Below are positions 6,884 through 60,777 of a stretch of DNA of 64,000 bases, piece by piece. Made by a program: the position numbers and the translations under genes. The stretch's first letter is position 1. The number at the start of each line of letters is the position of its first letter. Under the pieces are notes generated by a model, which was not told the DNA's origin, searched no databases, and saw nothing but the letters and a program-made list of their open reading frames with translations. The DNA is taken from assembly GCA_963667805.1 (NCBI GenBank), contig OY764016.1, positions 4,458,998-4,522,997 on the forward strand, given 5' to 3'. The DNA comes from Candidatus Poribacteria bacterium. GTDB lineage: Bacteria; Poribacteria; WGA-4E; WGA-3G.

Positions 6884-6978
6884 CAAACGGGTGTCCCCTC
6901 GCTGGCGAGGTTTCCTAACCTCGCCAAATTACCAAACGGGTGTCCCCTCGCTGGCGGGGTTTCCTAACCTCGCCAAAT
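6884..6978. repeat. two tandem copies of a 46-bp REP-like hairpin element (family A: GCTGGCGRGGTTTCCTAACCTCGCC)
   Basis: aaacgggtgtcccctcgctggcgaggtttcctaacctcgccaaat occurs twice back to back. The core GGCGAGG-TTTCCTAA-CCTCGCC is a perfect stem-loop. The same core recurs four times at 20085-20247. Confidence 0.75.
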
Positions 6979-7007
6979 CACATTTTTTCACAAGTTAGAA
7001 ACCTCGG

Positions 7008-7072
7008 AGGCTTTGAAGATTCTTTTAGGTCTAAACTCTTGTGGGAGGGCTTTGTAAGCCCGATTTTCTGTG
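7008..7072. repeat. approximately 65-bp composite REP-like element (family B core CTTGTGGGAGGGCTTTGTAAGCCCGATTTT)
   Basis: ggctttgaagattcttttaggtctaaactcttgtgggagggctttgtaagcccgattttct is near-identical (inverted) to the copies at 8785-8850 that flank the RAYT gene. It lies in the convergent intergenic space between two PhyH genes. Confidence 0.7.
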
Positions 7073-7074
7073 CC

Positions 7075-7977
7075 TTACGCTCCCATCTCAAGTCGCTTTT
7101 TCTGCTCTTCGAGCATCTTCTGCTGACGCTTGACGCGTTCTGGGACTAAACGTTCCCGCTGTGCCGTCGGTTTGAAATCCGATCTCTCTTTCCCTAATCC
7201 GTGCAGCACGGCTAATTCCACGGGTGAGAAATCGTCTGGATTTTCACGATTGAAATTCATCGGTTCCTTCAGGGAAACTGGCGGGTTCGTGATGAAACGG
7301 GCGCGTCCCGAAGGGTTCTGCGAAGCAGCGTGTAAGATAAACGGATGCAATAGCACAACGTCGCCTGCGTTCCCCGTGATTTCTACAAAGTCTTGGCATT
7401 TGTCAATGAGTTGCCCAAATCCGCCAGGCAACAATCCTTCTGGGTGTTCATACAACCGCTGTGCGACATGTTGGACTGAATCGCACGCCACAAACGTGCC
7501 ACCACTCTGGGGGTAGATATCCGACCAGACGACAATTGTGAGCAAACCCTGCTCCGGGCTATCTAAGAAATGACGGAAGAAATCGCCATCTTTGTGCCAC
7601 CCACCGACTTCTGGAGAAGGCGGTTGCCAGGGGGTGTCCGCGCCTAACCCAAAATTAATAATGAAACCGTCGCCCCATCCCGGTTTTGCGTCGCCCCAAA
7701 AATTGACAATCCTGTCTTCACCGCCAAGGAGATCACAGATGGCATCCCATGCCCTCGGTGCCACATCCTCGATCAAGACCCTATTCATAGAGGGCAGATG
7801 GACTCGGGGTTCTTCCCAAGTCGTCGGATCGTTTGGATCATAACCGAGTCGCTTAAAAGCGAAATCTTGCCATTCTTCTGCCAGTTCGCGCGGAAAGCAG
7901 TCTTTCAGAATAACATGTCCCTTCTCAGTGAAGTGGTTAATATCTTCTTGGGTAAGTGTTCTATAGGTTCTTGCCAT
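7075..7977 (-). CDS. PhyH-like 2OG-Fe(II) oxygenase family protein
   Basis: 300 aa. The N-terminal LTQEDINHFTEKGHVILKDCF resembles the PhyH N-terminal motif. The protein is a paralogue-like neighbour of the PhyH gene at 5668. Confidence 0.45.
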   Translation of the reverse strand: MARTYRTLTQEDINHFTEKGHVILKDCFPRELAEEWQDFAFKRLGYDPNDPTTWEEPRVHLPSMNRVLIEDVAPRAWDAICDLLGGEDRIVNFWGDAKPGWGDGFIINFGLGADTPWQPPSPEVGGWHKDGDFFRHFLDSPEQGLLTIVVWSDIYPQSGGTFVACDSVQHVAQRLYEHPEGLLPGGFGQLIDKCQDFVEITGNAGDVVLLHPFILHAASQNPSGRARFITNPPVSLKEPMNFNRENPDDFSPVELAVLHGLGKERSDFKPTAQRERLVPERVKRQQKMLEEQKKRLEMGA

Positions 7978-8088
7978 TTATAGGTTCCTTGTACTAAAGT
8001 TTGAACGGTTTTAGTTAAGATCAAAAGGAAGAGGCACAGGCTGACAGCCTATGCTACAAAGACAGGGTCATTCAATTGTCCGAAATCT

Positions 8089-8327
8089 CTCTTGTGGGAG
8101 AGGTTTTCAACCTCGATGACTCCATAGAAGATCGGGCTTACAAAGCCCTCCCACAAGAAGTCCATTTTTTCTGTAGGAAAGGTCTCAATCTTGAATCTTT
8201 GTGGGAGGGGTTTCTAACCTCGATACCTCCATCTCAACTTCTTGTGGGAGGGGTTTCCAACCCCGATACCTCCATCTCAACTTCTTGTGGGAGGGGTTTC
8301 CAACCCCGATACCTCCATCTCAAATTT
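8089..8327. repeat. REP array upstream of the RAYT gene: two inverted single copies plus three tandem 44-bp units
   Basis: ctcttgtgggagaggttttcaacctcgat occupies 8089-8117 and the inverted copy gggcttacaaagccctcccacaagaag occupies 8132-8158. Then cttcttgtgggaggggtttccaaccccgatacctccatctcaa is repeated three times across 8196-8327, with the last two units identical. Confidence 0.8.
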
Positions 8328-8789
8328 ACATCGCCAATATGGATAATCCCTTGCCACTTCAACAAGTCCCTTTCTGACAGGGTTCCCATAACAGTAGCGA
8401 ATCATTTCATTCAAAGCGGCCTCCCCTCGAATCCCGGTGTCGTGATACCCATCTTGCCAGAAGGTCCCTTCCTGTTTGAGCAATTTGTTAATCTGCCTTG
8501 CTGTAAAACGCTTGAGCGTATGCATAATGTCAGGTAAAGTATGCTGGGTGCGGAGTTGAATGATGGCGTGCAAATGGTCGGGCATAATCATGATACAGTA
8601 CCACCTGATACGCTCTTTGGTTTCAAGCCATTCAAAAGCATCAAAAATGATTTGGGCGATGCTGTCTTTTGTAAGAATCGGTGTGCGGTTGTGTGTGGTG
8701 GTAGTCAATAGATAGAAGGCTTCTGGCACTGAAGAGCGGCCTTTTCGCAATTGACGATAACCTTTCTTCTGACTATAATGCATTTTCAA
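8277..8789 (-). CDS. REP-associated tyrosine transposase (RAYT; IS200/IS605-like HUH-Y1 transposase)
   Basis: The HUH motif MPDHLHAIIQL and the catalytic-Tyr region GYHDTGIRGEAALNEMIRYCYGNP are present. It is flanked on both sides by REP copies in opposite orientation. The last 13 codons (VSGLETPPTRS) are read from inside a REP unit. Confidence 0.8.
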   Translation of the reverse strand: MKMHYSQKKGYRQLRKGRSSVPEAFYLLTTTTHNRTPILTKDSIAQIIFDAFEWLETKERIRWYCIMIMPDHLHAIIQLRTQHTLPDIMHTLKRFTARQINKLLKQEGTFWQDGYHDTGIRGEAALNEMIRYCYGNPVRKGLVEVARDYPYWRCKFEMEVSGLETPPTRS

Positions 8790-8898
8790 AGCCTTCAGAG
8801 AAAATCGGGCTTACAAAGCCCTCCCACAAGAGATTAGACCTAAAATAATCTTCAAAGCCTTCAGAGAAAATCGGGCTTACAAAGTCTTCCCACAAGAA
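8785..8898. repeat. two direct copies of the family-B REP composite on the other side of the RAYT gene
   Basis: cttcaaagccttcagagaaaatcgggcttacaaagccctcccacaagag occupies 8785-8832 and a second copy with two mismatches occupies 8852-8898, in opposite orientation to the 8089-8327 array. Confidence 0.75.
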
Positions 8899-9004
8899 AC
8901 TATTCTGATTTTTTAGGGGGTTTCTTTAAACAAAAACCCTAAAACTGAATGATCCTGCTGGCGACTTGGGTTATTATAACCTACAAGTATCCAGTTTCTT
9001 CACG

Positions 9005-12070: not shown

Positions 12071-12340
12071 TCTGTTCCCTTTCCCAGTTCAGCACATTAT
12101 ACCATACATTTGCAATGCGAAACAAATTTTTATTATATGGAGTGCCGTGAAGTCTGTCAAGAGAATTTTGCCCAGATTCCTGCCACATCACAGGAATGGA
12201 TTAGGAGAACGGTAGAATTTTGAGGCACCTGCAGGACCCGCAGCAGTCATAAATTTCGCGAACGGGTTATATACCTTAATATATAGAGCAGAAGAAACAA
12301 GGGGTGTTGAAGGTTGAAGCATCGTAAATATCGCGTTTTT

Positions 12341-12460
12341 TGCAAATATCTACAATTTTTTGCAATTTTACGAGAATTTCACGTTTTTTTATTAAATATA
12401 TGCAATTTTTCTGTAATTTTTGAATTTTTTGGCAAATATATGCAATTTTTTGTAATTTTA
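12341..12460. repeat. three approximately 28-bp AT-rich direct repeats (AAATATMTRCAATTTTTYTGYAATTTT), iteron/operator-like
   Basis: Copies lie at 12341-12368, 12393-12420 and 12433-12460. A TATAAT-like box follows at about 12488. They precede a small HTH gene. Confidence 0.5.
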
Positions 12461-20049: not shown

Positions 20050-20084
20050 GCATAACCCCCATTGAGGACTATGATGCTCCAAGT

Positions 20085-20247
20085 GCTGGCGAGGTTTCCT
20101 AACCTCGCCTTGCTCACCATCTCCGCGCTCCTCTGCTGGCGGGGTTTCCTAATCTCCCCGTTCCCCCTGCTGGCGGGGTTTCCCAACCTCGCCTTTTTTG
20201 TCAGTATCAGGATTTGTCTAACTGCTGGCGGGGTTTCCGAACCTCGC
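20085..20247. repeat. four same-orientation REP family-A hairpins in the intergenic region
   Basis: The copies are GCTGGCGAGGTTTCCTAACCTCGCC at 20085-20109 and variants at 20134-20158, 20168-20192 and 20223-20247. Confidence 0.75.
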
Positions 20248-20313
20248 CATGATATTCTACTTGATAAAAGATAGGGGTTTTGCTAAAATTATCAAAACAA
20301 AGCACATGCCGGC

Positions 20314-21261
20314 ATGGATACGGAGGAGATTATGGAGACCCTAAACGATTTTCAAAGTAAACAACGAAAATATATGCCTGTCTTTCCAAACGCGAGCGGG
20401 AAACCGACCGTTTATATCGAAGGCTACCCTTCCGAGGATGAAGACCCCATGCCAGCAGGTGAATTTCATGGGATGCAGATGCATACCTTATTTGACCAAT
20501 TCTTACGATATTTTCAGGCACACCCGCATATCCATGTGAGTATGGACAACTTTATCTACTACCGTGAAGGCGATCTGAGAAAGGTCGTTTCTCCCGATGT
20601 GTATGTCGTCTTGGGGGCTGCGAGACTTCCCTTGCGAAGGAGTTTTTATACGTGGGCAGAAGGCACTGTGCCAACGGCAGTTTTTGAGTTTCTTTCGGAT
20701 GCGACAGGGGCTCAGGATCGCGATGAAAAGATAGAGGTATATCTACGGGATATAGGGGTTGCGGAGTATTTTATCCATCAACCCGATATGAATCGCCCGA
20801 TAGAATTTCGGGGATGGCGGCGGGATGCGGTAGGCACCATCATTGAGATTGAACCGGATGAAGCGGGTGGTATTTTCAGTGCGTCCTTAAATCTGTATTT
20901 GCGATGGGAACTCCATGAGGCGTGGGAGCTGCGGCTTTTACGTCCGTATCTGCCGGATGGCACCCCGATAACGACTTCTATGGAGGAGGAGCACCTTCGG
21001 CTGGAGGAGCGACGCCTTCGGCAGGAAGAGCAACGCCTTCGGCAGGAAGAGCAACACCTTCGGCTGGAGGAGCAACACCTTCGGCAGGAAGAGCAACGCC
21101 TTCGGCAGGAAGCGGAGACGCGCGCGGCGGAAGAGGCACAACGCAGAAGGGAAGCGGAGACGCGCGCGGCAGAAGAAACACAACGCAGACGCGAAGTAGA
21201 AGCCGAGTTAGAACGGCTCCGGGCACAATTGGTGAACTCCCGAGATAGCGATATGTCCTAA
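20314..21261 (+). CDS. Uma2-family (DUF820) PD-(D/E)XK endonuclease-like protein with C-terminal coiled-coil octad repeats
   Basis: The Uma2 core is GEFHGMQMHTLFDQ...PDVYVVLG...FEFLSDAT...KIEVYLRDIGVAEYFIHQPD. The C-terminus is (EEQRLRQ/EEQHLRL)n followed by ETRAAEEAQRRREAETRAAEETQRRRE. Confidence 0.7.
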   Translation: MDTEEIMETLNDFQSKQRKYMPVFPNASGKPTVYIEGYPSEDEDPMPAGEFHGMQMHTLFDQFLRYFQAHPHIHVSMDNFIYYREGDLRKVVSPDVYVVLGAARLPLRRSFYTWAEGTVPTAVFEFLSDATGAQDRDEKIEVYLRDIGVAEYFIHQPDMNRPIEFRGWRRDAVGTIIEIEPDEAGGIFSASLNLYLRWELHEAWELRLLRPYLPDGTPITTSMEEEHLRLEERRLRQEEQRLRQEEQHLRLEEQHLRQEEQRLRQEAETRAAEEAQRRREAETRAAEETQRRREVEAELERLRAQLVNSRDSDMS

Positions 21262-28095: not shown

Positions 28096-28131
28096 GTCAA
28101 AATCTCTGTTGTGGGAGGGGTTTGTAACCCC
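28096..28131. repeat. solitary REP family-B copy
   Basis: ctgttgtgggaggggtttgtaaccccgatttatgc. Confidence 0.7.
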
Positions 28132-28235
28132 GATTTATGCGGCCAGAGGCATTCAATTATCACAAATCTCGGCTCTGGAGAAATGAACTGCAAAGTTCAA
28201 ACTTCCGTGCCTTATCCGCAAGGTAAATTAAAAAT

Positions 28236-31211: not shown

Positions 31212-33770
31212 CTACCGAATCACTGAAATATGGAGCGGACGGGTTGCTGAGCGACCCTCCGCATCCACGCACGTTAGCACATGTTTTCCCCTGGCAGGCG
31301 TAAGCCAGTATTGCTCTCCCGCATTTCCTTGAAAAATTAACTCACCATCCAAAAACCAGAACAGTTCCTGCGTCCGACTGGAAGCCGAGGCGGTCAACCG
31401 AATCTTTTGGTTTTCCAGTGGCACCCCCTCCCGAATGTAATAGGTAGTGTCTTCTGCTGGGGATAAAATAATCGGGACGTTCCCTGCAATTGTGCCGGTA
31501 CACAAGGGATTATGCGCCGGTAGGACAGACACAGCAAAACCATTCTCTGCCAACCACGTCGCCGCATCGGCGGGCCACTCCTCAAATATTTTTTTATAGG
31601 GTCCAGTTGACCCATCATTATTTCCCCAACAATGGGAACAGAGACTGTATCCTGTCGATTCGTCAACATAGATAGGTTTATGAATCGCGCAAACCGCTAC
31701 AGACGAAACACCGGGTATATACACGTCCTCCTTATGGGTGGGACAGTGCGGCGAAACCGGTGCGCCACTCAGGGTACACACTTGTCGTGTTTTCAATTGT
31801 TCTGGTTTGGTAAACCAGTGGTGTGTGTCTTGTCCTGTCAAGGCAGTGAAGAGCGCGAATAGGATCGGAGTTGCTGCATCTGTGCCGCTCAGCATGGGTG
31901 TCCCCTTTCCATCGAAATTACCGAGCCATACACCGATTGTGAAAGTCGGGGAGTACCCGATGCACCATGCATCTCGGTGTCCATAAGACGTCCCAGTCTT
32001 CCACGCAATCTTTGGTAGGTTCATTGTCCTTTCAAACGCTTCTGGATTTTTAACCGTGTTGGTAGGGAGTTGTGAGTTTGTTAACATCTCGGTTATGATG
32101 AAGCTGGTCTCTTGTCGGAGTAAACGTTTGGAATAGTTTTCAGTTTTCGGTTGATGAGGCTTTGTCAATTGATAAGGTCCAAATTCTCCCATATTTGCCA
32201 GTCCAGCGTAAAGTGTTGTCAATTCGAGTAGATTCACTTCGCATCCGCCGAGAACCATAGAGAGTCCGTATTTCTGGGCAGGCGCGAGTGTAGAGATACC
32301 GGCTTTTTTGAGGAAGGCGTGTAGTGTCCTATTTTTCAAGCGTGCATTAAGATTAACGGCGGGGACATTGAGAGAACGTGCGAGGGCTTGACGGGCAGTG
32401 ACATAACCGTTATATTTCCCATCATAGTTCACCGGTGTATAGTCAGCATAGGTAACGGGGACATCGAATAACAGTGTTTCGGGTGTAATCAAGCCCTCTT
32501 CCATTGCCAGGGCATAGACGAAGGGTTTGAGTGCAGAACCCGGAGAACGCGGGGCGAGCGTCCCATTTATTTGTCCTAATGCCTTCCGGTCGAAAAAGTC
32601 GTGGGAACCTACCATTGCTAAGATATGGCGGTTTTGGGTATCCATGACGATGATTGCGCCTGTGCTGGTGCTATGAGACCCGCGCAAACTCGGCTTACGC
32701 GCTGCGTCCACCAGATATTCGTTAAGGATGCGTGTCGCGATATCCTGAACCTTGGCGTCTATTGTCGTGTGTATCCTGCCATTTGTTATCCGTGAGTGGG
32801 AGGGGTTTCTAACCCCGGATTTCTTCCGGTTTTCTTTAATCAATAGGCGTGAGAGGTGTGGTGCTTTAAATGGAAGTGAATAGCGTTTATGCGGAATCGG
32901 TTCTTGGACTGCCTCCTGCCACTGCTGTTCGGAAATTTGTCGGCGTGCCAGGAGACGATTCAGGACTTTTTCGCGTGCCTTTCGGGCGTTTTCTGGGAAC
33001 CTGTCAGGGCGTAAACGTTCTGGAGCGTTCGGAATGGCGGCGAGAAGTGCGGCTTCCCCAAGACTAAGCGTATGCTGGGGTTTGTTGAAGTAGAACCGCG
33101 AGGCTGCCGCTGTTCCGACTATATTCCCACCATACGGGAGCATGTTAAAATAAAACGTTAAAATCTCTGATTTGGAATAAGCGTGTTCAAGTTGAAAGGC
33201 ACGGAACATCTCAATGAATTTGTTCGGAATGTTACGCGCCTTAGGTTCCATCAATCGGGCGAGTTGCATGGTGATGGTTGAACCCCCGCGGACAACTTCA
33301 CCCGCTTTCAAATTGTCATAGATGGCTGTTGCAATCGATACAGGATTGATACCGTAATGATAGTAGAACCACCTATCTTCTGATGTGAGTATTGCTTGGT
33401 GGAGTAAGGGGGAATAGGTATCGGGTGTTCCGTTTGTCTCGTGGTGAGAATCTTGGGTTAAGGAGGGGACTGATTTATTGAAGATCTGTTGTGATTGATG
33501 ACTAAATCGCCACATGCCATCGTCGGCTAAAAATGCTCGAAGCCACTCGCCGTTTCTGTCCAACACAATCTGAGATACAGGGGGATGGAGACGTGCTTTG
33601 GGTAGCGGGAAACACCAGTTTGCGAGCATAAAGAGGATGACAATCAACAAGAAAGATAGCATTACAGTCATCAGTCCTCCGAAGAGGGGGTGTCGGTTAT
33701 AAGAGGGGCTTGTTAGACGAAGACCTCTTAACTGAAAATTGAAAACTGAAAACTGAAAACTATTCATCAT
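31212..33770 (-). CDS. pbpC: penicillin-binding protein 1C (PbpC-type bifunctional transglycosylase/transpeptidase)
   Basis: GT51 motifs are EDRWFYYHYGINP, GGSTITMQLARL and KSEILTFYFNMLPYGGNIVG. A transpeptidase domain and the PBP1C C-terminal domain follow. Its start overlaps the upstream A2M gene stop by 4 nt (ATGA). Confidence 0.8.
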   Translation of the reverse strand: MMNSFQFSVFNFQLRGLRLTSPSYNRHPLFGGLMTVMLSFLLIVILFMLANWCFPLPKARLHPPVSQIVLDRNGEWLRAFLADDGMWRFSHQSQQIFNKSVPSLTQDSHHETNGTPDTYSPLLHQAILTSEDRWFYYHYGINPVSIATAIYDNLKAGEVVRGGSTITMQLARLMEPKARNIPNKFIEMFRAFQLEHAYSKSEILTFYFNMLPYGGNIVGTAAASRFYFNKPQHTLSLGEAALLAAIPNAPERLRPDRFPENARKAREKVLNRLLARRQISEQQWQEAVQEPIPHKRYSLPFKAPHLSRLLIKENRKKSGVRNPSHSRITNGRIHTTIDAKVQDIATRILNEYLVDAARKPSLRGSHSTSTGAIIVMDTQNRHILAMVGSHDFFDRKALGQINGTLAPRSPGSALKPFVYALAMEEGLITPETLLFDVPVTYADYTPVNYDGKYNGYVTARQALARSLNVPAVNLNARLKNRTLHAFLKKAGISTLAPAQKYGLSMVLGGCEVNLLELTTLYAGLANMGEFGPYQLTKPHQPKTENYSKRLLRQETSFIITEMLTNSQLPTNTVKNPEAFERTMNLPKIAWKTGTSYGHRDAWCIGYSPTFTIGVWLGNFDGKGTPMLSGTDAATPILFALFTALTGQDTHHWFTKPEQLKTRQVCTLSGAPVSPHCPTHKEDVYIPGVSSVAVCAIHKPIYVDESTGYSLCSHCWGNNDGSTGPYKKIFEEWPADAATWLAENGFAVSVLPAHNPLCTGTIAGNVPIILSPAEDTTYYIREGVPLENQKIRLTASASSRTQELFWFLDGELIFQGNAGEQYWLTPARGKHVLTCVDAEGRSATRPLHISVIR
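32795..32828. repeat. REP family-B copy embedded in frame inside pbpC (encodes KSGVRNPSH)
   Basis: gtgggaggggtttctaaccccggatttcttcc lies within the open reading frame, in the TG-TP linker region. Confidence 0.6.
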
Positions 33771-36700
33771 TCTGGGACCACTGTAATGCGCATGCTACCC
33801 GTTACAGCGGATTTTGTTGTATCGTACATCGCCTCGGCGGCAATGGGAGGTAAGGTAAATTCGCCTTGTGTGACGGCGCGTAGCGCGTAATAGAATTTAC
33901 GTTCGCGTTGGCGGGGAAACGTGCCGAAGAAGATTAGCCTGTCATCGCGAATATCAATATAATCCGGTTTGAAATCTTGTGTTTTCAACCATGAAATACC
34001 TGCTCGGGATTCTAATCTCGGATTCTCAATTTCGAATCCCGTAGGCAGCATATCTACGACGACAACATTTTCAAGGTTGGCGGTGAGAGCTTTAACGTTT
34101 ATCTCAGCGATGATGAGTTCTCCGTGTGCGAAGGGGCCTGTCCGTTCTTCACCGTCTTTGTTAAAATAGCGTCTGCGGACCTGTAATTCGTGCTCGTATT
34201 CTTCGATGAAGGAATCGCGTTGGATGCCAAACGCGCTCCAATAATAGTAGCAACTGCCCTCACCTTTAACAGAAAGTTGGACACGCATCCCATCCCATAT
34301 TTTATCGGTATAACGGGTCTCCGTTGCGTCGAAGTCGGCGAAATGTTCGCCATTAAGCGTTAGGGTACCCGTGTAATTTCTATCCATCTGTTTCTTCAGA
34401 ATCTTGCCGAGTGCCAGAAACGCAAAGGCGTTTTCTTGTGTTGTTGCCCATCGGTTCCCTTCAGCTGCTGCAGCACTTAGGTTTTGGACGAGCATTGGGA
34501 TTGACGGGTGGTTTTTGTTAACTTCAGCAAGAACGTCTAACATGATGGCTTGGGCTCGAATAGGGGAATCAAGCGTTCCGCCTGTCTCGCGATGTCCGTT
34601 GCCTTTATTAAAATTGGGTGATACTGACACGGGTAGCATTGACAGGGCGGTTTCCAGTTCGCCGCTGAGAGCGAACGCACCTGCGAGTTGGAAATGGCTA
34701 TAATCGCTGAGTCCGCTCAAACCTCTGTTTTTCAGATAGTGCATCGTGCCTCGGTCGGGATGTCCAGCAGCAGCTAAGACGTAAGCGGCATAGGTTGCTA
34801 ATGAAATCTTCTTTCTTATCTCTTGGGCTTCGTTTTCTGTGTTTGGCGAGAATTTCGCTTCCGTTCTTAGACCTTCCAGCATTGCGTCATAAACCCGGTC
34901 TGAGACCTCGTAGCCTGCCTTTCGTGCCTCGACGAGGAAGTGAGACGCATAGATACTGCTCCATGGGTTCACGTAAGTGCCGCCGGGCCAATAAGCGAAA
35001 CGATCGTCTGACTTCAACATACTTTCGATTTTTGTGATACCCGATGTGATGTAGTGATCCACCGAGTCTTCTGCTGCCAGCATCGGTTCAACACTTCGTG
35101 CCAAACCGCTGAAGTAAAGCAGCGGAAAAACCTTGCTCGTTGTTTGTTCGAGACAGCCGTGCGGGTAACGTATAAGGTAACGGAGACTGTCCGCAAACCT
35201 AATATTGGGGAACGGAGATAACGTGAGGCTAAACTCTGACGAATCGGGTATTAAATTTGACGGGAAAATAAAATCAGCAGGTTCACCTGCGCGGACCACG
35301 CCCTGTCCGGTTTGTGTAACAGGTGGAGCCACGGAACGCAGTGGGATTTTAACGTCTAATTGTGTTGTTTGTGTCTTACCGTGCGCCGAAAGATTGAAGT
35401 TGGCTTCCCCGATTGCGTCCTGAACGAGAAGATCGAAAAAAACTTGTGCTTCTGCGCCTGCGTCGACCTTCTGGTTTATACTGAGTTTGTCTGCTGTATA
35501 TTGGCTATCGGAAACCATCGGAGACTGTTGGTTTTCAGCAGAGCGGTGCTCTTGTTGATCACTGGCTATTGATGGATCGTTATTGGCAGCCATTGCTGAA
35601 AGGAGTTGCACGTCGCCTGATGCTTGCAATTCGACCGTAAATTCCTCTTCCGCGCCCGTGCCGTTAAAGAGGGTAACCGGGACCCGAACCTTATCACCAC
35701 CCGCAAGGAATCGTGGAAATGTCGGGGTTAAGACAATAGGTTCGCGGACAGTCAGATGTGCTTCTGTGCCACCGTAATCGCCACCCGCGAATGCGACTGC
35801 CATCAACCTGAGTGTCCCATTGAACTGCGGGATTTTGAATTGAACAGTACCGCGACCATTTCCATCGGTTTTCACGAATCCTGACCAGAGTGAAATCGGT
35901 TTTACGCGCCGGATGCTGCCTGTGCTCAATCGCTTCCGCAGTTCCGCCTGTCGTGTCGTGGCTGCATCTCCCCCCGTACTTGAGTTGTCGATAACATTTG
36001 CGATTTCGGGGAGGATCCCACTATACACGTCGAAGGAGCGCGTCTTAAGCCCACGCTGTCTATAGAAGTAAGCGTGTGGGTTGGGTGTTTTGAAATCGGT
36101 TAACACGAGGATCCCTTCATCAACGGCTGCAATACAGACATCATATTTTTGCCAAGAACGTCTACCGTGAACTTGGAACGCTATAGTCACCTCGCTATTC
36201 GGTAGGACTGTCGCTGCGCTTTCTATATTCTTTTCTGGACTGGCGAGTGGAATCTTCTCCATATCACCAGCATCGTTTCTCTGATTGAGCGACATTTCTA
36301 TCGAAAGTTGTCTCCGTGTTTCATCTATTTTGAGTGGAATTACCCCAAACGCGCGCGCCGGGAGCGGCGACTTCTTAGCAGTTGTAGGAGGGGTTTGTAA
36401 CCCCGATTCCATCGGGATGGCGCGCGTCAACGTCGCAGAGAGATACACATTCGGTCTATAGGCATAACGGATTGGGATTGATAAAGTTGTGGTGTTATTT
36501 TTCATCACGACTGTCCGGTAACTCAACACCTTTTCCCGTTCGATCGTCAGCAGGAGTGTGCCCGGAAACGGTGCCTTAACATATAGTTTTGCTGTTTGTC
36601 CGGGACGGTAAGCAGGCTTATTAAGCGTCAGTTCCAGTCGAGTGGGATGTTCCATAGAAACTGGAATGTTTCCCCATCCGCTGACATAAAATCCGAGTTC

Positions 36701-39466
36701 TGCTGTCGCTGTCGAGGCGATGTCCTCAAGACGGACGCGGTATTCACCATAATCTGAGGGCGTTAAGGTCACTGTCTGGACTGTTTCTGCTGAAGTTAGT
36801 GTGACCGTTTCCACTTCTGTTGTTTGAGGTTCCGAGACGTACGCATAGCGCCCGGCACCGTTCTGACGGAGTATCGTGTTCCAGTGGACTTTGTGGAGAC
36901 TGAGTTTGAGGTCTCTTCCGGGGGCAACTGCCATTGTATCGTTAACAGCAATGTAATCGAATCGGAGCGGTTGGTTGATTTTTACATCCCCGGTCTTTGT
37001 GCGTCGGAGTCCAACGTAATGCGAATAGGGATGGATCACAACGCTGTGAGAAGCGGTGACGGCTCTGCCGCCGACTTCGCTAACGGTCGCTGTCAGCGTG
37101 CCGTTTAGCAGAGAAGGTGCTTTCAGCGTTTCAGGGATCGTGAATTGATAGGACGCTTTACCCGCTGCATCGGTTTTAACTTCTCCCAATCCAATTCTTT
37201 GTTTTTCAAAATTGGAACGCGCATTCCCGAAGACAAACGAGTTCCACTGTGTTGCACTTGCGTTGGCTGCTGAATTTACAAACGAGACTGCTTCCAATTC
37301 GCAGGAAGCTTCCACCGTGCGCCCTACTGCTGGGGGACCGAATAGATTGATAGCGGACACTTCAATACCGAGTTCCTCTCCAAGTTTATAAGTGGATTTA
37401 TCCGCTGTTACAGCGACTTTTATCCGATCAGGCATAAATTCTTCGACCTGAAATTGGACTCTTCCAACGACCCGATCAGCGATCCGCATCTTGGCAATAT
37501 AATTACCAGTCAAGGCGTAGGTAGGGATAGGAATTTCTACATCGCAGGCACCGCTTTTGTTTGTTTGTAGTCTTAACTCCCGCATAATTCTGCCGTTTGG
37601 GGAGAGCACTTCAATCTTGGCAGGGAGCGGTTGTGGTGTTACCTGCTTTGGTCCTCGAACAATTCCAGCAAGTTGGACGGTTTCACCCGGACGATAGACC
37701 CCTCTGCTTGTGTAGAGGAACGCTTCATAACCTTTTTGCAGGTAGGCAGAACCGGCAATGTTGAAATCTGCTGTTGCGATTTCGTGTCGGTCGAGTTGAA
37801 CGAAAGCGAGATCGTCCCGTTTCGCGGCGGTGATCATAAACGGTGTGAAGTCTTCAGTCTTCTCCACAACGTCTGTGAACTGGATGTATCCTGCCCAGTT
37901 GGTTGTCCCATCGAGGAGTGTTTGGTTATTATCGCTGATGAGTTTAACGCGCGCCGCTGGGACTGCCGAACCCGTCGCGAGTGATTTCACCCAAACGTAT
38001 AGGTTATCTCCTAAGCGTTTGGCAGTGATACCCAAGTCTGTGATGAGCACCCATTGATGCGCACTATCCCACTCCCGCTCTGCGTTTCGCGCCACGACCT
38101 TAAAGATGCCGACATGTTCGTCTGAGAGATATTCTTCCAAGGAGATAGGTGTTGTTACCTCTTCGTTCAATTGGGACGGAATATCGAGTTCTTCTGTCCG
38201 AATCGGTTTACCTAAGTTTCTGCTCCAGCGACTCCATCGTTCTAATTTTGATATGTAGATAAGGTTGTTCGCGAAAACTTTTTCGATATTGAGTTTCACG
38301 CTTTTAACATTGATTGTTGCGAGACCTAAATTCAGATGCCCCTTTCTCGCGAGGAAGAAACCGTCGCCAAGGAATCGAAGTTGGGGTCGGATATCTGGGA
38401 TTCTGAGGCGCGTCCTGTAATCTTGTTTTAAAACGGCATCGTTTCGGGCTGTGAGACCGCGTCGGATCTTTAGCGTGTAGGTCGTGCGCCGTTTGAAGTT
38501 GCCGTGAATCTGCACGTTTCGATAGTCGGATGTCACTTGATGTGCTACTGCGGGGGTCAGTTCTATATACGGCTTGATGGCATCGCTGAGTACCGGCGCG
38601 CTGAAGCTCACCGAGATATACGGCGTTCCATCACTTTCCCAAACGTCAGCGTATGTCACACCGAGTGTGCCTCTCCCGCGGAGTATGACCGGTGTAACAC
38701 TCGCTTTTTCTAAACCAATTTTCCCACCCGTACATTTGAACCCTTTTTCAATCTTAATCTTTATCTCTTGATCTGCGTTGCCGCGTTTTATACGCTGCGT
38801 CTCGAATGTTACTGTCCGCGCTGTTGCTGTGTTGGTTTGAATCTGGTATGGAATTTCTGTTTCGTCGTCCAGTTCAATAGAGAGGTGTGCCTTTAAATCG
38901 ACAATGGTTACAGGATAATTAAATGCTATCGTCCCAAAACCTGTTGCGTGTTCGCGGGCATCATTGGCGGTAAATTCCATACGTGCCTGCTGCACTGCAA
39001 AAGGATCCGTAGCAAATTTAAACTCTTTTTGTCCAGTGAGTAGAAATGTCTCAGATGGGTTGAGTTCTGGGGTGAGTTGAACAGTATATTGTGCGGAGGG
39101 TGCTAAGGGTGCGTCTAAAAAGAAACCGACTCTGTCCCGCGCGATCCAACGGGCAGCGCCTTGGACAGCTGGTGTGAACCGAAGTGCCTCTGCTGGAACT
39201 TCGGTCCCGACACGCGACTTATCAATAACCGCTTCCGAGAACGTAATCGACAAATCAACCCATTGTGGAACCTCACCTTGTGGGCTGAAGGTCTTGACAC
39301 TGTATCGTGTCCGAGCACGCATGGGCCCCTGTACAATATAGACGATACAGGCAGCAAGGAGTAAGGACATGAGTCCGATCACACCGATTAAGCTTTTTAA
39401 GAGCAAATTTCGACTTCCGGGTTTCGCCGAAAGATTTGTGGAGAGTTTGGCTGCCATCAGACGCAC
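33767..39466 (-). CDS. bacterial alpha-2-macroglobulin family protein with intact thioester motif (YfhM-like)
   Basis: 1899 aa, N-terminal membrane anchor, MG-domain repeats. The thioester CLEQ lies in YLIRYPHGCLEQTTSKVF. It is cotranscribed with pbpC as in the classic yfhM-pbpC pair. Confidence 0.85.
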   Translation of the reverse strand: MRLMAAKLSTNLSAKPGSRNLLLKSLIGVIGLMSLLLAACIVYIVQGPMRARTRYSVKTFSPQGEVPQWVDLSITFSEAVIDKSRVGTEVPAEALRFTPAVQGAARWIARDRVGFFLDAPLAPSAQYTVQLTPELNPSETFLLTGQKEFKFATDPFAVQQARMEFTANDAREHATGFGTIAFNYPVTIVDLKAHLSIELDDETEIPYQIQTNTATARTVTFETQRIKRGNADQEIKIKIEKGFKCTGGKIGLEKASVTPVILRGRGTLGVTYADVWESDGTPYISVSFSAPVLSDAIKPYIELTPAVAHQVTSDYRNVQIHGNFKRRTTYTLKIRRGLTARNDAVLKQDYRTRLRIPDIRPQLRFLGDGFFLARKGHLNLGLATINVKSVKLNIEKVFANNLIYISKLERWSRWSRNLGKPIRTEELDIPSQLNEEVTTPISLEEYLSDEHVGIFKVVARNAEREWDSAHQWVLITDLGITAKRLGDNLYVWVKSLATGSAVPAARVKLISDNNQTLLDGTTNWAGYIQFTDVVEKTEDFTPFMITAAKRDDLAFVQLDRHEIATADFNIAGSAYLQKGYEAFLYTSRGVYRPGETVQLAGIVRGPKQVTPQPLPAKIEVLSPNGRIMRELRLQTNKSGACDVEIPIPTYALTGNYIAKMRIADRVVGRVQFQVEEFMPDRIKVAVTADKSTYKLGEELGIEVSAINLFGPPAVGRTVEASCELEAVSFVNSAANASATQWNSFVFGNARSNFEKQRIGLGEVKTDAAGKASYQFTIPETLKAPSLLNGTLTATVSEVGGRAVTASHSVVIHPYSHYVGLRRTKTGDVKINQPLRFDYIAVNDTMAVAPGRDLKLSLHKVHWNTILRQNGAGRYAYVSEPQTTEVETVTLTSAETVQTVTLTPSDYGEYRVRLEDIASTATAELGFYVSGWGNIPVSMEHPTRLELTLNKPAYRPGQTAKLYVKAPFPGTLLLTIEREKVLSYRTVVMKNNTTTLSIPIRYAYRPNVYLSATLTRAIPMESGLQTPPTTAKKSPLPARAFGVIPLKIDETRRQLSIEMSLNQRNDAGDMEKIPLASPEKNIESAATVLPNSEVTIAFQVHGRRSWQKYDVCIAAVDEGILVLTDFKTPNPHAYFYRQRGLKTRSFDVYSGILPEIANVIDNSSTGGDAATTRQAELRKRLSTGSIRRVKPISLWSGFVKTDGNGRGTVQFKIPQFNGTLRLMAVAFAGGDYGGTEAHLTVREPIVLTPTFPRFLAGGDKVRVPVTLFNGTGAEEEFTVELQASGDVQLLSAMAANNDPSIASDQQEHRSAENQQSPMVSDSQYTADKLSINQKVDAGAEAQVFFDLLVQDAIGEANFNLSAHGKTQTTQLDVKIPLRSVAPPVTQTGQGVVRAGEPADFIFPSNLIPDSSEFSLTLSPFPNIRFADSLRYLIRYPHGCLEQTTSKVFPLLYFSGLARSVEPMLAAEDSVDHYITSGITKIESMLKSDDRFAYWPGGTYVNPWSSIYASHFLVEARKAGYEVSDRVYDAMLEGLRTEAKFSPNTENEAQEIRKKISLATYAAYVLAAAGHPDRGTMHYLKNRGLSGLSDYSHFQLAGAFALSGELETALSMLPVSVSPNFNKGNGHRETGGTLDSPIRAQAIMLDVLAEVNKNHPSIPMLVQNLSAAAAEGNRWATTQENAFAFLALGKILKKQMDRNYTGTLTLNGEHFADFDATETRYTDKIWDGMRVQLSVKGEGSCYYYWSAFGIQRDSFIEEYEHELQVRRRYFNKDGEERTGPFAHGELIIAEINVKALTANLENVVVVDMLPTGFEIENPRLESRAGISWLKTQDFKPDYIDIRDDRLIFFGTFPRQRERKFYYALRAVTQGEFTLPPIAAEAMYDTTKSAVTGSMRITVVPE
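36384..36411. repeat. REP family-B copy embedded in frame inside the A2M gene (encodes ESGLQTPPT)
   Basis: gtaggaggggtttgtaaccccgattcc. The protein reads ...IPMESGLQTPPTTAKK.... Confidence 0.55.
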
Positions 39467-57756: not shown

Positions 57757-57783
57757 TAACCGCAAGGAAAAGTAAAAAAATGG
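57757..57783 (+). promoter_or_regulatory. short copy of the conserved CCGCAAGGAAAAGTAAAAAAATG leader/RBS element
   Basis: taaccgcaaggaaaagtaaaaaaatgg immediately 5' of the HIT gene ATG. Confidence 0.45.
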
Positions 57784-58187
57784 ATTGTATATTTTGTTCC
57801 ATAGTTGCTGGTGACATTCCAGCGACCACAGTGTATGAGGATGAAGATGTCTTGGCTTTTATGGATATTGCTCCCGCGAACCCGGGACATACTCTCATTA
57901 TACCGAAGCAACACTATCGAAATATCTATGATATGCCTGCAGAAGTAGGCGGTAAAATTATGCAAGCTGCGGTTTCACTCGCAAACGCGATCCGAACCGC
58001 ATTGAATCCTGATGGGCTTAACCTCTTTCAATCGAATGAAGCCGCAGGATTCCAGACCGTTTTCCATTTCCATCTCCACCTAATCCCGCGATGGGAAGGC
58101 GACCCGATCCGGTTGCCGTGGCGACCGAGCGAAGGGGACATGGAGGAAATCGGCAACATTGCAGCAAAAATTCGAGAAGCCTTGTAG
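57780..58187 (+). CDS. HIT-family (histidine triad) nucleotide hydrolase
   Basis: Histidine triad HFHLHLIPR. 135 aa. Confidence 0.8.
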   Translation: MDCIFCSIVAGDIPATTVYEDEDVLAFMDIAPANPGHTLIIPKQHYRNIYDMPAEVGGKIMQAAVSLANAIRTALNPDGLNLFQSNEAAGFQTVFHFHLHLIPRWEGDPIRLPWRPSEGDMEEIGNIAAKIREAL

Positions 58188-58296
58188 AACTGGTCTACAG
58201 GAATACTACTCCTACGGAACTTCGTCGAAAGGACATAATTCGTTGGTTGGGTAGGTCTAAGGAAACCGTAGCCTGCAACACCGGCGCAGGCGGATA

Positions 58297-58360
58297 TACG
58301 TAAAGGAACTTCAAATCTGAAATCCACCTGACCGAACCGCAAGGAATAATTAAAATTATG
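58297..58360 (+). promoter_or_regulatory. long copy (about 60 nt) of the conserved leader element ending in GAACCGCAAGGAATAATTAAAATTATG
   Basis: acgtaaaggaacttcaaatctgaaatccacctgaccgaaccgcaaggaataattaaaattatg. Confidence 0.45.
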
Positions 58361-59059
58361 AATATCTTGATTACCTCCGCTGGTTCTGAACTGGCGCGCA
58401 ACGTAACGGGAGCATTAGCGGGGGAACACACACTCCGCTTGACGGAGCTGTATCCTGTTGACACTGTTGAAGGGACGTTCGTGCAAAGCGAACTTGGGCA
58501 CGACGAGTCAACCAATGAACTGGTGCGGGGCATAGATATTATTATCCACATCGCTGAAACACCGCCTAATCTTCTTGCTGAAGCCGACCAACCCGACAAT
58601 TACGCTATCGATTATCAGACGCGCTGCACTTATAACCTCCTGATGGCAGCAGCGGAAGAAGGCGTGAAACATGCCATTTATGCAAGCACGCTCCGCCTCT
58701 TTGAGCAACACGGTGAAGACTGGACGGTTACAGAGAGTTGGCGACCTCGTCCTTCTGTGGATAGTTTCGTGCTTTCAAAGCATCTGGGTGAGTTCACATG
58801 TAGAGAATTCGGGCGTGAAGGCAAACTCAACGTGACGTGCCTTCGTCTCGGTAACCTCGTTACTGCTGATGCCGCGGCAACCGCCGAACCAGATTCAATG
58901 TGGCTTGAGATGAAGGACGCAGTCACCGCGTTTCAGGGAGCACTTGAATCGTCCTCGCCGTGGCGGATCTTTCACATCCAGTCAGAGTTCCCCGGTTCTC
59001 GTTTTTCGATCGGGAAAGCCAAGGGGCATCTAAAGTTCGAGCCGCAATTCGTACCGTAG
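58358..59059 (+). CDS. atypical NAD(P)-binding Rossmann/SDR-like (NmrA/epimerase-like) protein
   Basis: MNILITSAGSELARNVTGAL is a degenerate glycine-rich loop. It is a paralogue-like neighbour of the next gene and has the same architecture. Confidence 0.5.
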   Translation: MNILITSAGSELARNVTGALAGEHTLRLTELYPVDTVEGTFVQSELGHDESTNELVRGIDIIIHIAETPPNLLAEADQPDNYAIDYQTRCTYNLLMAAAEEGVKHAIYASTLRLFEQHGEDWTVTESWRPRPSVDSFVLSKHLGEFTCREFGREGKLNVTCLRLGNLVTADAAATAEPDSMWLEMKDAVTAFQGALESSSPWRIFHIQSEFPGSRFSIGKAKGHLKFEPQFVP

Positions 59060-59149
59060 CCGATAGGTAGCCATCCCTGCCGTTCCTGAACCAAAATTGT
59101 AGCCCGTAATGTAATGGAGGGGTTTTTGCTTGGGCGTTTCCTCTGGATA

Positions 59150-59232
59150 TACGCAAAGGAACATCAATACCAAGTCCTACCTGACCGAACCGCAAGGAAA
59201 AATTAAAAGACCGCAAGGAAAGTTAAAAGATG
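59150..59232 (+). promoter_or_regulatory. long copy of the conserved leader element with duplicated CCGCAAGGAAA core
   Basis: acgcaaaggaacatcaataccaagtcctacctgaccgaaccgcaaggaaaaattaaaagaccgcaaggaaagttaaaagatg. Confidence 0.45.
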
Positions 59233-59955
59233 AAAGTTCTTATTTTAGGGGGTAATGGGTATCTCGGACCGCATGTCGTCAAGGCGTTGGAACCTTACTA
59301 TACGTTGCGCGTCACAGACATCAACGAGATTGAAACGAAACATGAGTCGATGCACATTGATGTCGGTTCACTGGATCAGGTGATGCGAGCGACTGAGGGA
59401 ATGGACGCGATTCTCAATTGCTCCGTCCTACGACACGATCGGCAACTCGCTTTTGATGTGAGCACGCGTGGATGTTACAATATGATGCGCGCCGCTGTCG
59501 AACACGGTATCCGTCGCGTTATCAACACAGGACCCCATTTCACCATCCAAGGGGACGACTATACCACCTACGATTACGAGATTAACCCGGATGTTCCACC
59601 GCACACCAGCACTGGACTCTATCCGTTAACCAAGGGGTTAGGACAGGAAATCTGTAAAGTCTTCACTGAACATTATGACCTCTATGTTCTCTGTTATCTG
59701 TTCCTGAGTTTCCGAGAGCAGGACGATCCTGCAGAAGGCACCGATCTCAATCCCTTTTCTGTCAGTTGGCGGGACGCAGGTGAAGCCTTCCGACTGGGTT
59801 TGGAGATCGATTTGGAAGACCTGCCATCACGCTGTGAGATTTTCAATATTTTCGCAGATTTACCGCATCAGCAATTCTCGAACGTCAAAACGAAACGGAT
59901 TTTAGGTTTCGCGCCTCAGGATAACTTTGAGCGGATGTGGCATAAAACGGAGTAG
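59230..59955 (+). CDS. NAD-dependent epimerase/dehydratase (SDR/NmrA-like) family protein
   Basis: MKVLILGGNGYLGPHVVKAL is the Rossmann GxxGxxG motif. 241 aa. Confidence 0.65.
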   Translation: MKVLILGGNGYLGPHVVKALEPYYTLRVTDINEIETKHESMHIDVGSLDQVMRATEGMDAILNCSVLRHDRQLAFDVSTRGCYNMMRAAVEHGIRRVINTGPHFTIQGDDYTTYDYEINPDVPPHTSTGLYPLTKGLGQEICKVFTEHYDLYVLCYLFLSFREQDDPAEGTDLNPFSVSWRDAGEAFRLGLEIDLEDLPSRCEIFNIFADLPHQQFSNVKTKRILGFAPQDNFERMWHKTE

Positions 59956-60009
59956 AACATCAATACCGCAAGGAAAAGTTAAAAAGCCGCAAGGAATAAT
60001 TAAAAAATG
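59956..60009 (+). promoter_or_regulatory. copy of the conserved leader element with duplicated core
   Basis: gaacatcaataccgcaaggaaaagttaaaaagccgcaaggaataattaaaaaatgg. Confidence 0.45.
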
Positions 60010-60777
60010 GAGATTAAACTCTTGGCACATCGAGGCGGCATGGGGCGTGCCCCCGAAAATACCCTTGCTTCCTTCAGACAGGCGTTGGTGGACGGTGCCG
60101 ATGGATATGAGTGTGATGTCTGTCTCACCCAAGATAAACAACCCGTCCTAATTCACGTTGGCTTCAACCGATACAGTATTCAGAAAGCGACGGGATGCTC
60201 AAGATCCCTCAGTGAACTTACGTGGGAAGAGGTCCAACAACTCACGATGGAGGCATCTGATGAACCTGTTGCCCACCTTAACGATGCCCTTCATTTCGCA
60301 CGAGAAAACCAAATGCCGTGCTTCATTGAACCGAAGACGGACACGCCAGAATTACTCCCCATCATCGTAGAACAAATCCGCCATTTTGAAGTCGTTCATC
60401 TTGTCAATATTCTCACGTTTTACTTTCGCAAGCATTTGCTTGTGGAGGCTAAGCGTTTAGAACCAAAGTTGCAGACGAGTGCGATTCTCATTAATCCGGC
60501 GGCGAACTTCCTCAAGGCAGCGGCGGCTATTGATGCAGACCGCATCATCTTAGGCTGGAGTGGGATTAATCACTTTGGGCTTTATAACGCTTTCACGCAG
60601 ACTGTTACACGCCAGGTTAAGCAGCTCCAGGCAAACGGGATTGTTGTAGATGCCGGGTTCATTCAGACGGCGAAAGATGTCGATTGGGCGGTCTCACCGC
60701 GGAAAGCTGGGGGTGTTGATGGCTTATGGGTGGACGATGTGCCTTATATCAGACGTTGTCTCCGAGAGATGTTTTAA
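60007..60777 (+). CDS. glycerophosphodiester phosphodiesterase (GDPD) family protein
   Basis: HRGGMGRAPENTLASF...DGYECDVCLTQD...FIEPK matches the GDPD motifs. Confidence 0.7.
   Translation: MEIKLLAHRGGMGRAPENTLASFRQALVDGADGYECDVCLTQDKQPVLIHVGFNRYSIQKATGCSRSLSELTWEEVQQLTMEASDEPVAHLNDALHFARENQMPCFIEPKTDTPELLPIIVEQIRHFEVVHLVNILTFYFRKHLLVEAKRLEPKLQTSAILINPAANFLKAAAAIDADRIILGWSGINHFGLYNAFTQTVTRQVKQLQANGIVVDAGFIQTAKDVDWAVSPRKAGGVDGLWVDDVPYIRRCLREMF

Follow-up and report, generated by a model that had tools for sequence, protein, structure and literature searches.

The penicillin-binding protein 1C (PBP1C) encoded by the pbpC gene in a 64-kb stretch of a Candidatus Poribacteria genome contains a short peptide that is the translation of a repetitive extragenic palindrome (REP). 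The repeat belongs to a family whose REP-associated tyrosine transposase (RAYT) is encoded in the same stretch, which is called the window here. With a probability of about 0.85, we take it that a unit of the genome's own RAYT-associated REP family was inserted antisense in pbpC and has persisted there as a tolerated, essentially neutral passenger. The alleles with and without the repeat are named REP+ and REP-less. L numbers denote loci of other assemblies and P numbers (P0001-P0120) Poribacteria PbpC homologues.

The REP copy is read in frame within pbpC

The 28-nt string GTGGGAGGGGTTTCTAACCCCGGATTTC was found once in the window, on the + strand and antisense to pbpC (Table 1). Its hairpin has a 6-bp stem (32802-32807 pairing with 32811-32816) and a 3-nt loop (32808-32810). 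On the coding strand, the repeat is read as AAA TCC GGG GTT AGA AAC CCC TCC CAC, which encodes K317-S-G-V-R-N-P-S-H325. The initial annotation had described a 30-nt REP core in frame within an intact 852-aa PBP1C open reading frame (ORF), in the linker between the transglycosylase and transpeptidase domains, and had stated that the core has no stop codon in the three forward frames. The position in the ORF and in the linker was borne out by the ORF itself, by the TIGR02073 match and by the frame reading. The length had to be corrected to 28 nt, and the statement on the stop codons did not hold, since frame 3 of the + strand contains a TAA. A TAG is present in frame 1 of the - strand, and thus each strand offers two open frames.

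The identity of the host gene was tested with protein family models. The ORF matches TIGR02073 with 713 bits (cut-off 494) and contains the Pfam domains Transgly (residues 108-273), Transpeptidase (371-608) and BiPBP_C (763-843). The domain composition, the score above the equivalog cut-off and an adjoining alpha-2-macroglobulin (A2M) gene all identify the protein as a PBP1C. The catalytic motifs EDRWF, GGSTITMQ, SALK, SLN and KTGT are all there. Pairwise ratios of nonsynonymous to synonymous divergence (dN/dS) lie between 0.09 and 0.20, and pairs of REP+ alleles are among them. pbpC is therefore a functional gene under purifying selection. The A2M gene lies upstream and its stop overlaps the start of pbpC by 4 nt (33767-33770). 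The pairing of yfhM and pbpC is known, and the gene order A2M-pbpC was identical in every Poribacteria locus with gene calls that was examined.

The repeat belongs to a REP family with its RAYT in the window

Over 21 core positions the pbpC copy is an exact match to the REP family. Compared to the family consensus CCCCGATT it has one added base (CCCCGGATT), and GA replaces TT ahead of the GTGG head. The family unit of about 27 nt, TTGTGGGAGGGGTTTnnAACCCCGATT, combines a head of the form GT(G/A)G with a G+C-rich stem of 6 bp and a loop of 3 nt. When the window was scanned with the motif (TT)GTGGGAGGGGTTTnnAACCCCGAT(T), 10 copies with up to 3 mismatches were found. The hairpin core GGGGTTNNNAACCCC matched 6 times with up to 1 mismatch, whereas 0.10 matches were expected from shuffled sequences. 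The stems covary between the copies (GGGGTT/AACCCC, GGGCTT/AAGCCC and GAGGTT/AACCTC). Among the window copies with up to 3 mismatches, the one within the A2M gene has GTAG as its head tetranucleotide, and the pbpC copy and all others have GTGG. Exact matches were present in at least 120 metagenome stretches, which were taken together with the window to judge the dispersal of the family. In 122 non-identical copies, the conservation drops abruptly two bases beyond GTGG...CGA.

The RAYT gene is accompanied on both sides by REP clusters in opposite orientations, which is a REPtron arrangement. The unit size and the stem-loop, the GTRG-type head, the many copies and the flanked cognate RAYT are those of a RAYT-associated GTAG-type REP, and the pbpC repeat is a genuine REP of this family. 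The copies in pbpC and in the A2M gene are not extragenic, as both are within long conserved ORFs. This is a matter of their location and not of their sequence-family identity.

Some further observations were made on the family. Within the REPtron region (window 8070-8900), the three 43-nt tandem REP units extend from 8184 to 8326, and at its 3' end the RAYT ORF continues into a REP (...EMEVSGLETPPTRS). The stretch 8796-8860 has a counterpart of 65 nt at 7008-7072, with a complementarity of 95%. In the metagenome loci L043, L052, L057, L092, L094, L103 and L146, the family forms REPIN-like inverted doublets, whose two members are separated by 16 nt. The contigs with the REP family span 41% to 64% G+C, and the family may occur beyond the Poribacteria as well.

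Orthologues without the repeat also lack the peptide

PbpC of the window was compared with 120 close Poribacteria homologues. The REP peptide was present in 22 of the 121 proteins (consensus ENRKKFGVRNPSHSR). In the remaining proteins the loop was short, for example LVKHAKSTTDGRIY or LVKENRWRAKSTKDG, or held other inserts. About 60 further orthologues from Poribacteria had a short loop of the kind LVKHAKSTTDG. Of the REP-less alleles, the closest is L039 (P0014), which is 95-98% identical at the nucleotide level, reads LTKEKQTTNG and is shorter by exactly 36 nt. In the DNA alignment, the REP of the REP+ alleles (window, L001, L008, L041, L040 and L002) lies at the exact point of the gap in the short alleles. 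Deeply branching Poribacteria (53-67% identity) and PBP1C outgroups from Chitinophagales are 7-15 aa shorter at the insert site. The loop comparison was extended to 141 full-length PBP1C representatives of 36-48% identity. For the L309-I333 segment, 10-11 residues were counted in 105 of the 145 aligned sequences vs 24 in the window protein, and the REP peptide was found in none of the 141 representatives. The insert itself is carried by at least 20 proteins, which were assembled independently of each other and come from NCBI, ENA, JGI and Logan.

The orthologue test that the initial annotation had proposed was thus passed, as the REP-less orthologues (L039, the approximately 60 Poribacteria, the outgroups and the 141 PBP1C representatives) also lack the peptide. 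On the aligned sequences, the polarity given by the orthologues identifies the REP in pbpC as an insertion.

The peptide is located in a predicted loop between two domains

The structure of PbpC was predicted with AlphaFold2 from an alignment of 140 sequences including diverse PBP1C proteins. The mean predicted local distance difference test (pLDDT) was 90.5 and the predicted template modelling score 0.88. An earlier model from 50 Poribacteria-only sequences reached a mean pLDDT of 36.6 and was not used further. The predicted fold matches those of E. coli PBP1b and S. aureus PBP2. In the model, a helix extends over residues 304-318, followed by coil and a short turn at 319-331 and a strand at 332-335. 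The mean pLDDT of the 10-residue blocks was 98 for 301-310, 88 for 311-320, 67 for 321-330 and 96 for 331-340. The insert site is in the interdomain linker, past the transglycosylase domain and ahead of the transpeptidase core, and the REP peptide is predicted to form a low-confidence loop that leads from the helix 304-318 to the strand 332-335. The structure mapping suggested by the initial annotation therefore gave a predicted loop with a dip in confidence between the two domains. The peptide, (K)F/SGVRNPSH, is rich in Gly, Pro, Ser and Asn.

Duplication, probable loss and probable transfer of the insert

In every REP+ orthologue allele examined, the junction reads AAGAAATTCGGGG, with one additional T compared to the canonical AAATCGGGG. 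The window copy has AAGAAATCCGGGG at this place, where a T to C exchange leads to F318S. Because all REP+ alleles have the same unusual junction, a single origin of the pbpC insert is likely, and this sequence argument favours one insertion event. The REP+ carriers include lineages at a synonymous divergence (dS) of about 0.6 from the window, and the insert is therefore old. The window copy, L008, L001, L041 and L002 have a perfect stem, and that of L040 has decayed (AAATCCC).

L039 is 95-98% identical to the REP+ alleles of the window, L008 and L001 (98.2% to L008 downstream) and retains their clade-specific flanks. Since L039 is nested among REP+ genomes, the most plausible reading of the missing 36 nt is an in-frame deletion that followed the insertion. 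L041 is a mosaic. On both sides it is about 96% identical to the REP-less L019, and approximately 300 nt around the REP are 94-97% identical to the clade of the window. From this pattern, L041 appears to have acquired the REP through homologous recombination, or the assembly may be chimeric. The mosaic region corresponds to 7600-8300 in the pbpC of contig PANK22-1 scaffold_3270. The REP-containing segment was also extended in frame, by a 51-nt tandem duplication in L008 and by additional 21-nt partial copies in L001, L008 and P0013. Among the REP+ orthologues, the peptide shows the substitutions S318, D322, A324, W319 and L323.

Multiple gains, which a simple neighbour-joining tree could suggest, were considered and rejected, as the junction is common to all REP+ alleles and L041 is demonstrably mosaic.

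REP copies in other genes and other inserts in the pbpC loop

A second REP copy of the window is located in frame within the A2M gene. The window, L008, L039 and L040 have this copy. It is missing in L041, L002 and 17 further loci of Poribacteria, which read PMEGTVTDKKSP and have 15 nt less. The copy aligns to a gap in the E. coli YfhM structures (at about residue 795). The corresponding loop precedes a YfhM stretch that runs to about residue 897, and no claim on the bait region is made. In other lineages, two further in-frame sites were found in the A2M proteins, one at about residue 1320 (six loci) and one at about residue 202 (L015). The first of these falls in a hypervariable stretch, of which the window protein has a long and different version.

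To the same question, the exact metagenome matches contribute a sample that was not chosen by gene. With at least 60 aa required on either side of the copy, 17 of the 99 evaluable copies, among the matches listed, were in open frames of at least 250 aa. Pfam domains were detected in 9 of 10 tested REP-bearing frames (AIR-synthase-type, sulfatase, TPR, DUF255, FG-GAP, SDR, peptidase C25, AAA_15 and sugar transferase). The usage of the frames is skewed. The SGLxTPP frame was found at about 13 sites, GVxNPSH at 3, GGVxNP at 3-4 and the Cys frame (GRGx) at 1, and among the intragenic sites tallied none used the Trp/Phe frame (WEGF) or the RGxKPLP frame. This fits a filter for loop-compatible peptides.

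In other lineages, the pbpC loop that carries the REP here holds four different inserts, all of them in frame and strongly palindromic (folding energies between -34 and -42 kcal/mol). For the inserts of L164, L162 and L163, 14-mers were found elsewhere in other loci. The hairpin of L003 had no further copies in the examined loci, and its status as a repeat is unproven. The pbpC loop may be an insertion hotspot or simply a tolerant loop. The 14-mers of the L163 linker insert are in part shared with a region near the pbpC start in several other loci.

Table 1. Positions of the genes, REP copies and loop inserts (window coordinates unless a locus is named)
Feature	Position	Strand	Evidence or remark
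pbpC (penicillin-binding protein 1C), host gene	31212..33770	-	852 aa, uninterrupted ORF; TIGR02073 and Pfam
REP copy in pbpC	32796..32823	+ (antisense to pbpC)	GTGG head 32796-32799; encodes K317-H325
36-nt (12-codon) segment missing from L039	32794..32829	-	DNA alignment; REP plus 11 nt and 2 nt of flank
A2M (yfhM-like) gene, operon partner of pbpC	33767..39466	-	1899 aa; Pfam bMG3, MG2, bMG5, bMG6, A2M_BRD, A2M, bMG10
Second in-frame REP copy, in A2M gene	36384..36407	+	GTAG head; other frame, read as ESGLQTPPTT
RAYT gene	8277..8789	-	170 aa; NF047646 REP_Tyr_transpos 134 bits (cut-off 80); PF01797 Y1_Tnp 51 bits
Five REP copies 3' of RAYT	8094..8310	8094+, 8131-, 8201+, 8244+, 8287+	three form a 43-nt tandem unit
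REP copies 5' of RAYT, inverted relative to the downstream cluster	8804..8897	-	8804-8827 and a more diverged copy within 8862-8897
Intergenic REP copy	7041..7064	+	motif scan
Intergenic REP copy between EF-G-like and DUF423-like genes	28111..28134	+	motif scan
Copies with up to 3 mismatches (start positions)	7041, 8094, 8201, 8244, 8287, 28111, 32796, 36384	+	motif scan
Copies with up to 3 mismatches (start positions)	8131, 8804	-	motif scan
REP near A2M residue 1320	L004 8040-8063; L006 2417-2440; L009, L011 and L020 8240-8263; L023 8108-8131		
REP near A2M residue 202	L015 4221-4244		
Other pbpC loop inserts	L003 10901-11044; L164 10976-11110; L162 11006-11185; L163 9539-9727		

Proposed origin of the insert

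We propose that one REP unit of about 27 nt entered pbpC in the antisense orientation, in the DNA for the loop between the linker helix and the RIHTTID strand. The unit would have been mobilised by the RAYT with a single-strand chemistry like that of IS200/IS605. It is free of stop codons in the frame it occupies, and together with a few flanking bases it makes the loop 12 residues longer. With the predicted fold and the catalytic motifs kept and purifying selection acting on the gene, it is most probably a tolerated, essentially neutral passenger. Selection would screen such insertions for permissive loops and for loop-friendly frames. The old insert now seems to evolve as coding sequence of unstable length, as suggested by the 51-nt and 21-nt duplications, the 36-nt loss and the transfer by recombination.

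Several points weigh against this explanation or against parts of it. The REP+ alleles fall into at least two separated clades of the simple neighbour-joining tree, which speaks against taking a strictly single origin as proven. No clean target duplication is definable at the pbpC junctions, and the mechanism of insertion, including a RAYT-mediated transposition of a REP to a new site, is what we infer in this analysis. The surface position of the loop is deduced from the coil assignment, the low model confidence and the tolerance for indels. The core FGVRNPSH is less variable than its immediate flanks among the REP+ orthologues, which speaks against taking neutrality as demonstrated. In the same direction, a single difference was found among the 10 third-codon positions of the REP between lineages at a dS of about 0.6. 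This is weakly below the expectation, and a rough binomial P of about 0.16 makes it not significant. The direct repeats ATGGAA (L002) and AAAT(T)CG (L040) had been considered as target-site duplications and were rejected, as they are confounded by the divergence of the flanks and by the identity with the REP's own ends.

A recruitment of the peptide for the function of PBP1C, for instance for the interdomain flexibility or for the binding of a partner, would explain that the insert was kept across lineages at a dS of about 0.6 with a fairly conserved core, and that it was lengthened further through duplication in some of them. We regard such an adaptive loop as quite improbable. A very close relative has lost the insert and no decay of its gene was seen, it is missing from most Poribacteria and from every outgroup sampled, and four unrelated sequences occupy the same loop in other lineages. 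In addition, the peptide tolerates substitutions, the model confidence is low at the insert and the same REP is scattered over unrelated proteins. The hairpin could also have been kept for a role of the nucleic acid, such as translational pausing between the domains, a site for an RNase or gyrase, or the binding of the RAYT. Intergenic REPs act as RNA or DNA elements (PMC3733652), and the stem is perfect in five of the alleles named above. The folding energy around the pbpC copy, however, is ordinary (-13.1 kcal/mol, z = -1.09), the stem is broken in L040 and, as judged from the peptides, in P0030, P0040 and P0004, and the element was lost in L039. A regulatory role is therefore very unlikely. 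A significant RNA hairpin was considered and rejected, as the z-scores of -1.09 and -1.39 were indistinguishable from shuffles.

Elements of the IS200/IS605 type insert 3' of a short specific sequence. With this habit in mind, the loop DNA itself could be a landing pad of the form GC(A/G)AAA(T/C)C, with insertion at its 3' end, that is preferred by hairpin elements moved by Y1 (IS200/IS605-like) transposases and that was hit independently. The REP in L002 and L040, the 54-nt hairpin in L164 and the 51-nt hairpin in L003 start within about 2 nt of one point, which follows directly on AAATTC, AAAATC or GAAACC. The empty allele GCAAAATCGACAAC contains AAATCG, which are the terminal bases of the REP itself, and the REP of L040 is bracketed by AAATTCG...AAATCG. 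We hold this for possible but rather doubtful. No conserved motif was found to flank the 122 REP copies, the empty A2M alleles do not have the AAATC context, and the inserts of L162 and L163 begin at other points of the loop. The 1-nt extra junction base in all REP+ alleles favours one origin followed by recombination, as was seen in L041. Moreover, the junctions are ambiguous with their diverged flanks, and the tolerance of the loop accounts for the pattern too. A coincidental similarity, an ancestral segment, a pseudogene or an assembly artefact is hardly conceivable. Such explanations draw on the generic risk of metagenome-assembled genomes only, and they are opposed by the exact match over the 21 core positions to a family of many copies, by the number of independently assembled proteins with the insert, by the outgroups without it, and by an intact ORF with purifying selection and a confident predicted fold.

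The neutral insertion of a RAYT-associated REP thus remains our preferred explanation. A wider interpretation is that the Poribacteria are a second case of the kind known from Rickettsia, where the coding genes are pervasively colonised by several unrelated small palindromic families, with the pbpC loop as a recurrent landing site of the REP and of at least four other hairpin inserts. We put this forward tentatively and would not yet bet on it. If it were true, the Poribacteria genomes would be a natural, densely sampled map of insertion-tolerant loops and a tractable system for REP insertion. Three of the inserts start within about 2 nt of the same AAA(T/C)C position, which hints at a target recognition by Y1-type transposases.

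For the annotation of Poribacteria genomes, it matters that REP peptides such as SGLxTPPT, GVRNPSH and GGVSNPD are expected to recur in unrelated proteins, where a reader may take them for motifs or for a sign of homology. Palindromic inserts explain a part of the length variation of the Poribacteria PbpC proteins. For protein engineering, the loop in the transglycosylase-transpeptidase linker of PBP1C is marked as insertion-tolerant.

Further observations on PbpC and the window

The PbpC homologues P0001-P0120 are 805-992 aa long, compared to about 770 aa of a typical PBP1C elsewhere. The range is due to several more indel hotspots with repeat-like peptides, which were observed after the window residues 480 (RTSNSTPIQHSKARVGG), 542 and 721 (SAVSSRRGEVTSPLQGFRKPK; APLHSAVVSGEVRPAPGTQRVLTSPDTLVKR) and at the N-terminus. 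The 5' end of the pbpC ORF (window approximately 33680-33770, MMNSFQFSVFNFQL) looks as if it were translated from a short-period (CTGAAAA)n-type repeat, and the true start codon may be located farther downstream.

A second hairpin repeat family, CTGGCGAGGTTTCCTAACCTCGCC, has a 9-bp stem and forms intergenic clusters of 2 and 4 copies at 6884-6981 and 20068-20255 of the window. The ORF at 20314-21261 (+) contains a coding 21-nt tandem repeat of about 9 copies (20961-21170), which gives a coiled-coil-like segment of the (EEQRLRQ)n type. The A+T-rich box TTTTTTGCAAATATaTGCAATTTTT occurs in 4-5 copies within 130 nt (12335-12460). The motif ACCGCAAGGAAAAaTTAAAA was observed upstream of several ORFs, at 57759-60017, 28212 and 52488.

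Comparison with known systems

The initial annotation had compared the insert with the Rickettsia palindromic elements (RPE) and the Correia elements. The comparison with the RPE is useful as an analogy of how the system works, but not as a membership. Like the RPE (Ogata et al. 2000), the REP is selfish palindromic DNA that is read in frame in functional genes at positions compatible with the fold, and the in-frame insertion at a permissive site was found here. The RPE are about 105-146 bp long and add 30-50 residues vs about 27 nt and 9 residues here, which makes them 4-5 times longer. The sequences are unrelated and the pbpC repeat does not belong to the Rickettsia families, whose elements have about 100-150 bp. 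A dedicated transposase is not known for the RPE, in contrast to the RAYT here. The Correia (NEMIS) elements and other miniature inverted-repeat transposable elements are also small palindromic repeats without autonomy, by which coding regions can be overlapped or extended. A kinship with them fails by size and structure, as Correia elements have 100-155 bp, terminal inverted repeats and a TA target duplication and mostly act as transcript elements or at the ends of genes. None of this applies here, and no TA duplication is present at the pbpC junctions.

REPIN/RAYT systems are reported to have been described by Bertels and Rainey in 2011 and by Nunvar et al. in 2010. As in these systems, the REP family is tied to a single-copy Y1 transposase with inverted REP flanks, and doublets with a 16-nt spacer are found in the metagenome. 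The copies in pbpC and in the A2M gene differ from them as intragenic singlets, whereas REPIN populations normally avoid genes. Our searches of the literature for a link of the Poribacteria with REP, RAYT or miniature inverted-repeat elements gave CRISPR-related or unrelated papers, and none with such a link was found.

The closest known case is that of the GTAG-type REPs. Di Nocera, De Gregorio and Rocco (2013; BMC Genomics 14:522, PMC3733652) catalogued in-frame intragenic copies in several species, with the highest number in Opitutus terrae, and suggested that these sit in flexible linkers or loops. The statement of the initial annotation that REPs are normally confined to intergenic DNA was thus too strong. 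The published GTAG families include GTRG and GTGG heads, and most of the GTAG-20 heads of O. terrae are degenerated to GTGG, which is also the head found here. Common to both are units of 20-40 nt, a RAYT flanked by REPs, a mainly intergenic location and a fraction that lies wholly within ORFs of known proteins. The present case differs by the phylum and by the host gene pbpC, whereas DNA repair and replication genes were stressed for the published ones, and its intragenic share appears to be high (the 17 of 99 copies among the matches listed). It differs also by the orthologue series, which gives the polarity, a clean loss, duplications and a transfer by recombination. An intragenic REP is already known in other bacteria, and the pbpC insert is a clear new example and not a new phenomenon. 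With its empty, filled, duplicated, deleted and recombinant alleles, the orthologue series is unusually complete evidence of a REP that has been absorbed in a functional protein.

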